Assembly: GCA_038322185.1 (NCBI GenBank)
Contig: JBBQFU010000208.1
Location: forward strand, 1-16,045
Source of the DNA: Haliangiales bacterium
GTDB taxonomy: Bacteria > Myxococcota_A > Polyangia > Haliangiales > Haliangiaceae
Length of the DNA: 16,045 nucleotides
Reading direction: 5' to 3'
The notes beneath the pieces are model-generated. The model was given only the letters and a program-made list of their open reading frames with translations, did not search any database and was not told the DNA's origin. This document shows positions 1-2,693 of this stretch, in pieces. The first letter of the stretch is position 1, and each line of letters opens with the position of its first letter. Position numbers and translations under genes: made by a program.

Positions 1-456
1 GGCGAACACGGTGTACGTGAACGCGGCGTCGGCAACGAGGCTCTCGCGCGACAGCACACGACCGTCGGCGCTGATCACCGTGCGCACGAGGTCGCCGCTC
101 GTTGTCCGGGGATCGGACGTATAGGCTTCGACGACCCATGCCGCCACGAGCTGGTCGGCATACGGGTACCAGAACTTGCGCGCGCGAGCTTGCTCGACCC
201 GCGCACCAGCCGCAGCACGGCGGATCGCACCTGCTTCGTCGTCGACGAAGACCGCCGGCGTGCGTGGCAGGCGCGGATCGAGCGGGCGGCCCGTGCGCAT
301 GACCACCGAGCCGTCGCCGCGGACGAGCGTTCGTTGTGCACGCTGGTAGACCGGCATGCCGTCGAGCGCGCGGTCGGTGCGCGTGACGCGGGGCTCGGCG
401 GGTGGATCACTGCATGCGGCGATCACAACGCATGCCGTGAGCCACCGCGACGTCAT
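1..456 (-). CDS. Lipoprotein, 3' end beyond window start. Start ATG at 454-456 overlaps the upstream stop by 4 bp (ATGA). N-terminus MTSRWLTACVVIAACSD has a signal peptide and lipobox.
   Basis: I translated this myself; it is absent from the ORF track because the frame stays open to base 1. High GC3, no stops, lipobox VIAAC, ATGA coupling with the 456..1631 gene. Confidence 0.6.
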   Translation of the reverse strand, partial: MTSRWLTACVVIAACSDPPAEPRVTRTDRALDGMPVYQRAQRTLVRGDGSVVMRTGRPLDPRLPRTPAVFVDDEAGAIRRAAAGARVEQARARKFWYPYADQLVAAWVVEAYTSDPRTTSGDLVRTVISADGRVLSRESLVADAAFTYTVFA

Positions 457-1631
457 CATTTCTTGGGCCAGAGCCCTGAAGCGACAAACGCCGGGATGAG
501 CGGCCACAGCAGCAGCGGCCAGATCGGCTGCCGCAGCACGCCGACGGCAAGCAGCACCGCGCACAGCGCGAGCATGCCGAGGCGGATGCGCGCGTAGAGC
601 TGGCGCTGGTGCGGCTTGAGGAACCACACCAGCAGCAGATCGGTGGGCAGCAGCAGCAGGCAGCTCTCGTTGGACTCGACGTACGGCAGCGGGCTGATGA
701 TCGCGAGGAACCAGAACACGCTGCCGAGGAACACGTACGGGATCACGGCGAGCGCCATCCCGGTGCGCTCGAACTTACCGAGCAAGCGCGTGATCCACGC
801 GGGCGACGTGAGGACGAGAATGATCAGCGCGAACCAGATGCGTCCGCTCGGGCCGTCCTTGAGCGGCGGCGGTCCCTTGCGCTCGTACATCACGAGCGGC
901 TTCAGCTTCCAGAACGACTCGGCGGCGTCGCGCATGTAGTCCGGGAGGAACATGCGCTCCCAGTAGCTGGGCTCGTGATCGGTGACGCGGCCCATCGCGA
1001 TGTCCGTGATGATGAGCGGGATGCGCATGCCGAAGAACCCTTCGCGCGCGAGGTCGCGATAGGTGCGGCCGTCGGTCTTCTGCGTGGCCGACCAGGTCTT
1101 CATCGCGCCGCCGATCGCATCGTCGAGCACGTTACGCACGCGCGTGGTGCAGTTGTCCCAGAAGTGGTCGTACGCGTAGTAGCGATGATCGTCGAGGATG
1201 TCGTACTCGAGCTTCGCGATGACCTTCTGCTCCTGCTCGTCGGTGAGCGGAAGCGGCTGTACCCAGATCGTGCGATCGGCGCGGCGGTAGATGCCGAGCA
1301 TCGCCTGCGGATCCATCTTCCCGACCCAGAAGCTGTTGGTTCCCCGGAAGAAGCCGGTGCCCATCTTCACCGGCTCGTGAAAGTCGCCGATGCCGTAGTT
1401 GTAACAGGCGTCCTCTTGGGGATCCGCGTAGCGAATGCACAGCGCGATGTGGCCGTGGCGCTCCCAGATCAGCGAACCGATGCCCATCGTGATGAGCTCG
1501 ACGACGGGGTAGCTCTTGTAGATCTCCTGGATCTCGGGCGGGATGTCACGCGGCCGCTGCGCGGCTGCAGGAGCGACCGCTCCCAGCGAGACGCCCAACG
1601 CGATCAACACGGCGACGGCGCGAGCTGACAT
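456..1631 (-). CDS. Secreted/membrane protein with an N-terminal signal peptide, a DUF4105/Lnb-like periplasmic domain (motif YDHFWDNCTTRVRN) and about 4 C-terminal TM helices. Possibly an Lnb-type lipoprotein N-acyltransferase-like protein.
   Basis: 391-aa ORF with high GC3. Signal peptide MSARAVAVLIALGVSLGAVAPAAA. Hydrophobic C-terminal third (WFALIILVLT..., LAVIPYVFLGSVFWFLAII..., LGMLALCAVLLAVGVL..., WPLLLWPLIPAFV). The family assignment is from memory of the DUF4105 'NCTT' motif. Confidence 0.55.
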   Translation of the reverse strand: MSARAVAVLIALGVSLGAVAPAAAQRPRDIPPEIQEIYKSYPVVELITMGIGSLIWERHGHIALCIRYADPQEDACYNYGIGDFHEPVKMGTGFFRGTNSFWVGKMDPQAMLGIYRRADRTIWVQPLPLTDEQEQKVIAKLEYDILDDHRYYAYDHFWDNCTTRVRNVLDDAIGGAMKTWSATQKTDGRTYRDLAREGFFGMRIPLIITDIAMGRVTDHEPSYWERMFLPDYMRDAAESFWKLKPLVMYERKGPPPLKDGPSGRIWFALIILVLTSPAWITRLLGKFERTGMALAVIPYVFLGSVFWFLAIISPLPYVESNESCLLLLPTDLLLVWFLKPHQRQLYARIRLGMLALCAVLLAVGVLRQPIWPLLLWPLIPAFVASGLWPKK

Positions 1632-1649
1632 GCGCGGCGAGTGTATCTC

Positions 1650-2693
1650 TCAATCGGTCCAGCGCCAGCGGATGCGGGTGTGCTTCCCGAGATTAATCTC
1701 GGAGTTCCCCGTAACCGTGATCACGCGCGCTGCGGGTTGTCCCGCCAGGAACGAACCGTTCGTACTCGCGGTGTCGATCACCATGAGCGTGTCGTCGATC
1801 TGGAGCAGCATCGCGTGCACGCGCGACATCGACGGATCTTCGAGAATCGCGGCGGCATCGCAGCGCGCGTAGCGGCCGAGCAGCACGCCATCGCGAAGCG
1901 CGGCGTCACCGATCTTGAGCGCGCCATAGCGGGTCTCGCCGATGATCTCGAGCGTGCCCGCGCTATCACCGGCGCGCTGGACGAGACCTTGCGCGGTGTC
2001 GCGCGGACCGTGCGTGCGATAGACCATGCTGCGGCGCGTGTTCACGTCGAGTGGCATCGCGGTGAGCGAGCCCTCGGGCCGGCATTGCATCTCGTCGAAG
2101 TAGACGCGCTCGGGGAGCATGCTCCACGCGTCGCTCGCGAGCTGCGGCCAATCGGTGGCGTCGCCGAGCGGCAGGATGAAGATCGCGTGACGCGCGCACC
2201 GCATGATCGCGGGGCCCTCGGCGCGTAGACCGCGCATCGAGCGATTGTTCTCGTCGGTGAAGCCGGTCTCGGTGCGGAGGTCGAGCACGCGATAGCGCAC
2301 GCTCGTCTCGCCGCGACGGTAGCTGGTGACGGGATCGAGCACGACCGTGAGGTGGCGCAGCGCGAGCGATGTGTGATTGTTGAGGAACAGGTCGCAGGCA
2401 TCGTGGCGGCCGACGATCGCGGCCACGTGACGGCCCGGACGTGCACGCAAGCGAACAAGCCCTGCGGGCTGACCGGTGGCTTCGTCGACCGCGAGCAGCG
2501 CGACACCCGGCTCGTCGACCTCGCGGCACAGCTCTGCGAAGCGCGCGTACGCTCCCATGAAGAGCTCGCGCATCGAGAACGCGTCCGCGTCGCGGACCCG
2601 CTGGCTCGAGATGCCGTAACAGGTCGCCGCGTTCGGACCGCCCCGGAGCTGCCCAGCCCAGAGGTCGATACCGATGGTCTTCACCGGATCCAC
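1650..2693 (-). CDS. FHA-domain protein with a GTG start. The ~250-aa N-terminal domain has unknown function; the C-terminal FHA domain reads GRYARCD...SRVHAMLL...DTASTNGSF.
   Basis: 347-aa ORF, high GC3. The C-terminal ~90 aa match FHA hallmarks (G-R...S-R-x-H-A, STNG-[ST]-F). It sits 18 bp upstream of the DUF4105 gene on the same strand. Confidence 0.7.
   Translation of the reverse strand: MDPVKTIGIDLWAGQLRGGPNAATCYGISSQRVRDADAFSMRELFMGAYARFAELCREVDEPGVALLAVDEATGQPAGLVRLRARPGRHVAAIVGRHDACDLFLNNHTSLALRHLTVVLDPVTSYRRGETSVRYRVLDLRTETGFTDENNRSMRGLRAEGPAIMRCARHAIFILPLGDATDWPQLASDAWSMLPERVYFDEMQCRPEGSLTAMPLDVNTRRSMVYRTHGPRDTAQGLVQRAGDSAGTLEIIGETRYGALKIGDAALRDGVLLGRYARCDAAAILEDPSMSRVHAMLLQIDDTLMVIDTASTNGSFLAGQPAARVITVTGNSEINLGKHTRIRWRWTD

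Follow-up and report, generated by a model that had tools for sequence, protein, structure and literature searches.

The DUF4105/Lnb family is a recently recognised alternative to Lnt and, to our knowledge, has been characterised solely in Bacteroides. Lnb of Bacteroides (BT_4364 / BF9343_0945; NF051878; PF13387 and PF25221) is a protein of about 390-400 amino acids (aa), in which a periplasmic DUF4105 domain of the permuted NlpC/P60 type is followed by a C-terminal transmembrane (TM) bundle. The protein of B. thetaiotaomicron carries His49, Asn66 and Cys148, of which C148 is essential, and this sole characterised protein of the architecture is an N-acyltransferase (PMC11573676). DUF4105 has been grouped with the permuted NlpC/P60 lipid-targeting acyltransferases and its repeated displacement by Lnt within conserved contexts has been reported (PMC12994826). 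The other system relevant here is that of the FHA adaptors GarA/OdhI and FhaA, which connect Hanks kinases with enzymes of the envelope or of metabolism. In mycobacteria, the soluble FHA protein FhaA is encoded beside the envelope-biogenesis membrane protein MviN (MurJ), in some versions together with a Hanks kinase (PknB), and by this precedent the control of an envelope membrane protein by FHA and kinase is a known kind of system. Here we describe a locus with a comparable layout, in which a gene for a tandem-FHA protein precedes a gene for an Lnb-like DUF4105 membrane protein. It lies on contig JBBQFU010000208.1 (16,045 bp, 68% GC), which in its full length is hereafter called the window, and which comes from a metagenome-assembled genome of an uncultured member of the Kofleriaceae (Myxococcota).

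This pairing of two known families is unreported and lineage-restricted, and the enzyme of the window is new to the DUF4105/Lnb-like family; a literature search found no paper mentioning both the FHA domain and DUF4105. Four genes lie in series on the minus strand, encoding an RluA-type pseudouridine synthase, the tandem-FHA protein, the Lnb-like protein and an M36 metallopeptidase (Table 1). As read off the sequence, the gap between the FHA and DUF4105 genes is 18 bp (1632..1649), and the DUF4105 stop overlaps the M36 start by 4 bp (ATGA, 459..456). The RluA-type gene runs in the same direction, with 39 bp between its end and the FHA gene downstream. A promoter and terminator scan detected neither a promoter nor a terminator-like hairpin between the four genes, the sigma-70 consensus being of little value at 68% GC. 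A preceding annotation of the same DNA, made from the sequence alone and referred to below as the original prediction, had described minus-strand genes for FHA, DUF4105 and lipoprotein products with 18-bp and -4-bp (ATGA) junctions. The open reading frames (ORFs) and the sequence confirmed these genes and both junctions, but the co-directional RluA-type gene and the truncation of the last gene had been overlooked.

The original prediction had staked its case on a DUF4105 match in the 456..1631 product. Pfam Lnb_N/DUF4105 (PF13387) indeed matched residues 43-195 (E 2.1e-18, 66.9 bits against a cutoff of 22.2), and the NCBIfam Lnb model (NF051878) aligned residues 44-363 with model positions 31-364 of 394 (E 6e-33). 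Hydropathy indicated a signal or TM segment at residues 5-23, followed by the periplasmic permuted NlpC/P60-type domain and a C-terminal TM bundle from about residue 265, with clear segments at 265-283, 294-312 and 348-366 and two weaker ones judged by eye. The size and domain order are thus those of the Bacteroides protein. The putative catalytic residues are His61 (1449..1451), Asn78 and Cys161 (1149..1151), and Asn follows His at a distance of 17 residues and Cys at 100, compared with 17 and 99 in B. thetaiotaomicron Lnb, as mapped through spacing and model coordinates without a direct alignment to BT_4364. H61, N78 and C161 are invariant among close relatives. Across 48 relatives of 27-63% identity H61 and C161 are unchanged, and C76, N160, R166, R192, P329, D331 and R350 are likewise invariant in these 48 sequences, down to 27% identity.

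The likeness to Lnb has clear limits. The score on the NF051878 equivalog was 114.2 bits, below the cutoff of 550, so the protein is classed from its sequence as Lnb-like rather than as an Lnb ortholog by the criterion of NCBI, and the Pfam model of the TM domain (5TMH_Lnb, PF25221) scored 13.4 bits, below its cutoff of 25.2. The Lnb-like architecture proposed at first was upheld, but not an orthology with Lnb. An exhaustive HMMER search with the window protein returned 3764 cluster representatives at E <= 1e-3, of which 208 reached E <= 1e-30; the majority are 350-440 aa long and aligned over the full length. Ten wider relatives that were sampled, one of them from a Polyangiaceae genome, scored 47-120 bits on the Lnb model, which indicates a large DUF4105 subfamily with predicted Lnb architecture that is separate from Bacteroidota Lnb and includes other Myxococcota. 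Because it combines the Lnb architecture with an invariant His/Cys pair, the window protein is probably a catalytically active Cys/His enzyme that faces the periplasm; judged by its relatives, it is most likely an acyltransferase. E. coli-type Lnt was not found in 1.88 Mb of Kofleriaceae loci, a sample too small to mean anything since about 0.3 matches are expected by chance.

The product of the upstream gene has 347 aa when read from GTG 2693, or 344 aa from GTG 2684 in the public annotation, and with zero TM segments by hydropathy it is a soluble, cytoplasmic protein. The FHA domain proposed at its C-terminus was recovered (FHA2; Pfam FHA, PF00498, residues 271-336, E 2.6e-11, 44.2 bits against a cutoff of 20.7). 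The motif layout of FHA2 is Gly273-Arg274, Ser290-Arg291-x-His293 and Asn312-Gly313, and the phosphothreonine-binding residues G273, R274, S290, H293, N312 and G313 are invariant in an alignment of 33 homologues. FHA2 is a canonical and presumably phosphothreonine-binding domain.

The N-terminal part of about 250 aa, which the original prediction could not place, turned out to be a second FHA domain (FHA1) and not a new fold. Sequence methods missed it: Pfam gave no match to FHA1, a PDB profile search gave only chance matches (for example TATDN3 and alkaline phosphatase, E >= 0.08), and hhalign of the N-terminal against the C-terminal half aligned no more than 24 columns locally, around the GR..H motif (E 0.068). 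Its identity was resolved by a separate structure model of residues 1-235. The full-length AlphaFold model (pLDDT 80, pTM 0.84) consists of two all-beta domains, and the top structural matches of both are FhaA, GarA, OdhI and Rv1747 FHA-1; the Foldseek matches of FHA2 to FHA structures agree with the predicted FHA beta-sandwich. The homologues are about 345 aa long and conserved over the full length (57-90% identity), the N-terminal half as well as the C-terminal half. Since the confident model contains two all-beta domains and both halves are equally conserved, we regard the product as a tandem-FHA protein. According to the alignment, FHA1 retains Gly95-Arg96 and His114, carries Ala111 at the position of the phosphate-binding Ser and lacks the loop Asn, and we infer that it is degenerate.

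The predicted fold of these domains resembles that of the mycobacterial FHA adaptors, from which the window protein differs in having two FHA domains, the first of them degenerate. Models of FhaB and OdhI scored 23-32 bits on it, and no orthology was found at the sequence level. Two threonine-containing motifs, KTIGxDLWxGQxRG at residues 5-18 and SxxxRTHGPRDT at residues 222-233 in the inter-domain linker, are strongly conserved in segments of low model confidence that are probably disordered. By analogy with GarA/OdhI, these could be candidate sites of phosphorylation or self-binding.

Conservation of the pair was examined in two scans, one anchored on the FHA gene (one genome per species, 80 loci, all Kofleriaceae/Haliangiales) and the other on the enzyme gene (80 metagenome loci); all named relatives come from metagenome-assembled genomes of Kofleriaceae/Haliangiales. 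Inspection of the gene contexts gave groups that were matched exactly by distance clustering of the enzymes (average linkage, UPGMA). Group A, to which the window belongs, has the order RluA, FHA, Lnb-like, M36. In group B, genes for agmatine deiminase, CN-hydrolase and YceI are followed by FHA, Lnb-like, M3 and OprB, and in part of the group a Ser/Thr kinase gene is inserted between FHA and Lnb-like. This kinase is soluble; its HRDLKPDN, DFG and APE motifs are intact, and its activation loop contains threonines. In group C the Lnb-like gene lies upstream on the opposite strand, with BolA and sometimes EF-Tu between. Groups D and E are without an Lnb-like gene: in D the order is DsbA < SDR > FHA, convergent with MurJ, and in E the FHA gene adjoins genes for histidine kinases and response regulators.

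In the FHA-anchored scan, the enzyme gene was directly downstream at 14 of the 80 loci, upstream and divergent at 10, elsewhere in the locus at 1 and absent at 44, the other 11 being uninformative. In the enzyme-anchored scan, a same-strand FHA gene was found upstream at 29 of the 50 informative loci, immediately preceding the enzyme gene at 22 and separated from it by the kinase gene at 7. A kinase gene without a detected FHA gene upstream was seen once, a divergent arrangement twice, and no FHA gene at 18 loci with more than 1.3 kb of upstream sequence; 16 loci without an FHA gene had shorter upstream sequence, and 14 were uninformative. The gap within the pair was 11-128 bp and stayed this short while the flanking genes on either side changed between lineages A and B. 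Enzyme copies that are unlinked to FHA adjoin genes for metallo-beta-lactamase-fold, HAD/ATPase, HDOD or methyltransferase proteins, and distant homologues were found in unrelated contexts, with no FHA gene beside any that was examined. The FHA-then-Lnb-like order thus recurs in two Kofleriaceae lineages and with different flanks, the third gene being M36 in one and M3 in the other. For both genes, most relatives lack the partner next to them.

Further observations were made at individual loci. In a Polyangiaceae locus (L167, 6001-9174; GCA_019637265.1), a distant homologue of the enzyme with about 31% identity is followed co-directionally by genes for an M23 peptidase and a PP2C Ser/Thr phosphatase; judged from gene content, this is a second, independent link of the enzyme family to genes of Ser/Thr phospho-signalling, seen once. 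The tandem-FHA gene of group D (L043, L050, L053, L058, L063, L064, L070-L072, L080 and L085; FHA at about 10001-11050) is convergent to murJ, which encodes the lipid II flippase, or one or two genes away from it, with DsbA-like and SDR genes upstream, an arrangement that recalls the mycobacterial FhaA-MviN link. In lineage C, one Lnb_N gene (L005, 4009-6204, minus strand) was called as 731 aa, nearly double the usual length, and may be a fusion or a gene-calling artefact.

The third gene had been described as encoding a lipoprotein. Its product begins with MMTSRWLTACVVIAAC, followed by SDPP, and has a lipoprotein-type signal (VIAAC) with Cys16 at 412..414, in agreement with that description; it does not, however, represent a small lipoprotein. 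Over residues 88-153, the part encoded by the 153 codons of the window aligns to the pre-catalytic stretch of M36 metallopeptidases (NF038112, E 1.7e-12), and the orthologous loci L001 and L003 encode Peptidase_M36 plus PA proteins of 1131 and 1058 aa in the position of the truncated gene, the syntenic orthologues matching PF02128 at E 1e-70. By this homology the third gene is the 5′ end of a gene for a zinc metallopeptidase of about 1100 aa (M36, fungalysin-type), severed by the end of the contig. Of seven lineage-A M36 N-termini inspected, all have a Cys after a hydrophobic stretch, and five fit the lipobox pattern, the other two (IFGC, GLCAC) not strictly. The orthologues share the Peptidase_M36 and PA domains with the myxosortase-dependent M36 family (NF038112, model positions 229-1190 of 1604). 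That label was rejected, as they scored 860-945 bits against a cutoff of 1500 and lack the C-terminal third of the model (about 1190-1604), the part in which one would look for a C-terminal sorting signal; they appear to be anchored by the N-terminal lipobox instead.

At the same place in lineage B lies a gene for a Dcp-like M3 peptidase, whose N-terminus carries a twin-arginine signal (MLRRTFFQ...SFAKG) and lacks a Cys, features by which this protein is predicted not to be a lipoprotein; the idea of a conserved lipoprotein substrate as the third partner could not be sustained. Tat export is unusual for the M3 family, whose members are normally cytoplasmic or Sec-exported. The signals (MLRRTFFQTTAA...SFAKG) were seen at L002 (8370-8600), L006 (10477-10700) and other group-B loci, and a few group-B copies appear to be without them. 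At 19 of the 20 informative loci with an FHA-linked enzyme gene, the gene that followed it encoded M36 or M3; of the unlinked enzyme genes, 24 of 26 were followed by neither. A conserved partnership with exported zinc peptidases is still unproven, because M36, M3 and M23 are unrelated, their export signals differ and many members of the enzyme family have no peptidase neighbour.

What joins the two genes can be read in several ways. The tandem-FHA protein may be an adaptor in Hanks-type Ser/Thr kinase signalling, with FHA2 docking on the autophosphorylated kinase rather than on the enzyme, and the Lnb-like enzyme may be an acyltransferase that forms a thioester and has lipoproteins or membrane lipids as its targets; its gene behaves like a broadly conserved envelope gene that occurs in many different contexts. 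If the FHA gene is co-transcribed with the enzyme gene in the two Kofleriaceae lineages, kinase signalling and the envelope function of the enzyme would at least be co-expressed, and perhaps coupled. The exported zinc peptidase downstream, an M36 lipoprotein here and a Tat-exported M3 enzyme elsewhere, would be a neighbour and not a demonstrated substrate. We consider such a functional coupling possible, about as likely as inherited gene order. Speaking for it, besides the domain identities and catalytic residues, are the tight junctions without a terminator-like site, the persistence of the pair between different flanks, which makes it more than a single case, the 29 of 50 enzyme-anchored loci with the FHA gene upstream, the exact match of enzyme clusters to gene context, the intact motifs of the inserted kinase and the PP2C neighbour at the Polyangiaceae locus. 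The link between FHA protein and enzyme is plausible but weakly supported, its basis being the gene order observed in two uncultured lineages. A stronger form, in which Hanks-kinase signalling controls envelope acylation (N-acylation of lipoproteins by an Lnb-type enzyme, or lipid transacylation of a related kind) through a dedicated, co-transcribed tandem-FHA adaptor, appears distinctly unlikely.

Several findings weigh against coupling. The pair is confined to effectively two (or three) lineages of one family, and groups A and B are not sisters in the clustering of the enzymes. The enzyme gene is absent nearby in 44 of the 69 informative FHA-anchored genomes and upstream on the opposite strand in 10, and the FHA gene is missing from the 18 enzyme loci with ample upstream sequence. 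Genes for TerB, BolA, RluA and a phosphonate-binding protein also reappear in the surrounding region, which is what inherited synteny predicts. Acyltransferase activity and substrate are both taken from a distant relative, the score on the Lnb model lying far under the equivalog cutoff. In addition, the cytoplasmic loops of the enzymes are about 10 residues long and the tails variable or absent; the window enzyme ends four residues past its last helix and hence has almost no cytoplasmic tail, and a search of loops and tails by synteny group found no Thr or tail specific to the FHA-linked copies. The FhaA-MviN system differs precisely here, as MviN has a phosphorylated cytoplasmic pseudokinase domain that is bound by FhaA, and the Lnb-like protein has neither a phosphorylatable cytoplasmic domain nor a conserved Thr. 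Because the enzyme offers no FHA-specific Thr or tail, a coupling, if there is any, is more likely to run through the kinase or another partner than through direct docking of FHA on the enzyme.

Inherited gene order is therefore a serious rival, given the few lineages with the pair and the recurrence of TerB, BolA, RluA and the phosphonate-binding protein. The FHA protein would then serve unrelated kinase pathways, and a chromosomal block would have been kept in some Kofleriaceae and broken in others, which we judge to be possible to the same degree as coupling. The shuffled order of the block genes, the opposite strands of the lineage-C pair with BolA, with or without EF-Tu, between, the FHA-family members in unrelated contexts (MurJ; two-component systems), the many loci without the partner and the enzyme without a phospho-acceptor feature all accord with it. 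It explains less well that the pair persists with short gaps between different flanks, that a kinase gene was inserted exactly within the pair without separating it, and that an exported zinc peptidase follows nearly all FHA-linked enzymes and hardly any unlinked one.

The remaining alternatives concern what the enzyme does. The original prediction implied a dedicated lipoprotein N-acyltransferase that modifies the adjacent M36 lipoprotein under phospho-control by FHA. The Lnb-type architecture, the catalytic residues and the Cys found in every lineage-A M36 N-terminus speak for this model, but the lineage-B peptidase without Cys, the occurrence of close enzyme relatives by themselves in unrelated surroundings, which fits a general rather than a dedicated enzyme, and the failure to qualify as an Lnb equivalog make it very unlikely. 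Also unlikely, though less so, is that the protein has a different activity of the permuted NlpC/P60 type (for example phospholipase, lipid transacylase or amidase), possibly aiding the export or maturation of envelope zinc peptidases. The subfamily is distinct from Lnb, its ten sampled members reaching at most 120 bits on that model; clades related to DUF4105 include phospholipase/acyltransferase enzymes and lipid-targeting toxins (PMC12994826); and an M36, M3 or M23 peptidase gene lies downstream in three different arrangements. On the other hand, the only characterised protein of this architecture N-acylates (PMC11573676), the three peptidase families are mutually unrelated with different export routes, and many family members are without a peptidase neighbour.

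The coordinates of the features are collected in Table 1.

Table 1. Features of the four-gene series on the minus strand of the window.
Feature	Coordinates	Strand	Basis
M36 metallopeptidase gene, 5′ part (153 codons)	1..459	-	frame open from ATG 459 to contig end
Lnb-like DUF4105 membrane protein, 391 aa	456..1631	-	ORF and Pfam Lnb_N
Tandem-FHA protein, 347 aa	1650..2693	-	ORF, Pfam FHA and AlphaFold model
FHA2, residues ~240-345	1659..1976	-	canonical FHA domain; Pfam, alignment and Foldseek
FHA1, residues ~60-180	2154..2516	-	divergent FHA-fold domain
RluA-family pseudouridine synthase	2733..~4370	-	Pfam PseudoU_synth_2; start codon uncertain

The RluA-type protein matched Pfam PseudoU_synth_2 (E 4e-30) and scored 159 bits on TIGR00005, below the cutoff of 192.7. 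Its N-terminal extension of about 300 aa has no match in Pfam or NCBIfam. As the long ORF extends into the divergent TerB gene, the choice of start codon is uncertain. Every lineage-A locus whose sequence reaches far enough has an RluA-type gene upstream of the FHA gene. None of the four proteins matched the anti-phage defence models of PADLOC, no Rfam RNA family was matched in the region, and a repeat search of the region gave only weak chance matches. Elsewhere in the window, on the plus strand, 6468..8912 encodes an 814-aa protein with MVP_shoulder (E 1.6e-23), Vault_3 and Band_7/SPFH domains, a bacterial homologue of the major vault protein of eukaryotes, of which a 628-aa relative is present in L004. 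A serpin with an N-terminal extension of about 135 aa is encoded at 10418..11914 (plus strand; Pfam E 7e-102).

For the biology of the Myxococcota, these results show a large, separate subfamily with Lnb architecture and catalytic residues, and raise the question whether triacylated lipoproteins are made by its members. If the pairing is functional, the acylation of lipoproteins or lipids would join the envelope processes that are under the control of Ser/Thr phosphorylation. If kinase-controlled acylation proves true, it would be the first case of phospho-regulated lipoprotein maturation, with Lnb-type enzymes working outside the Bacteroidota.

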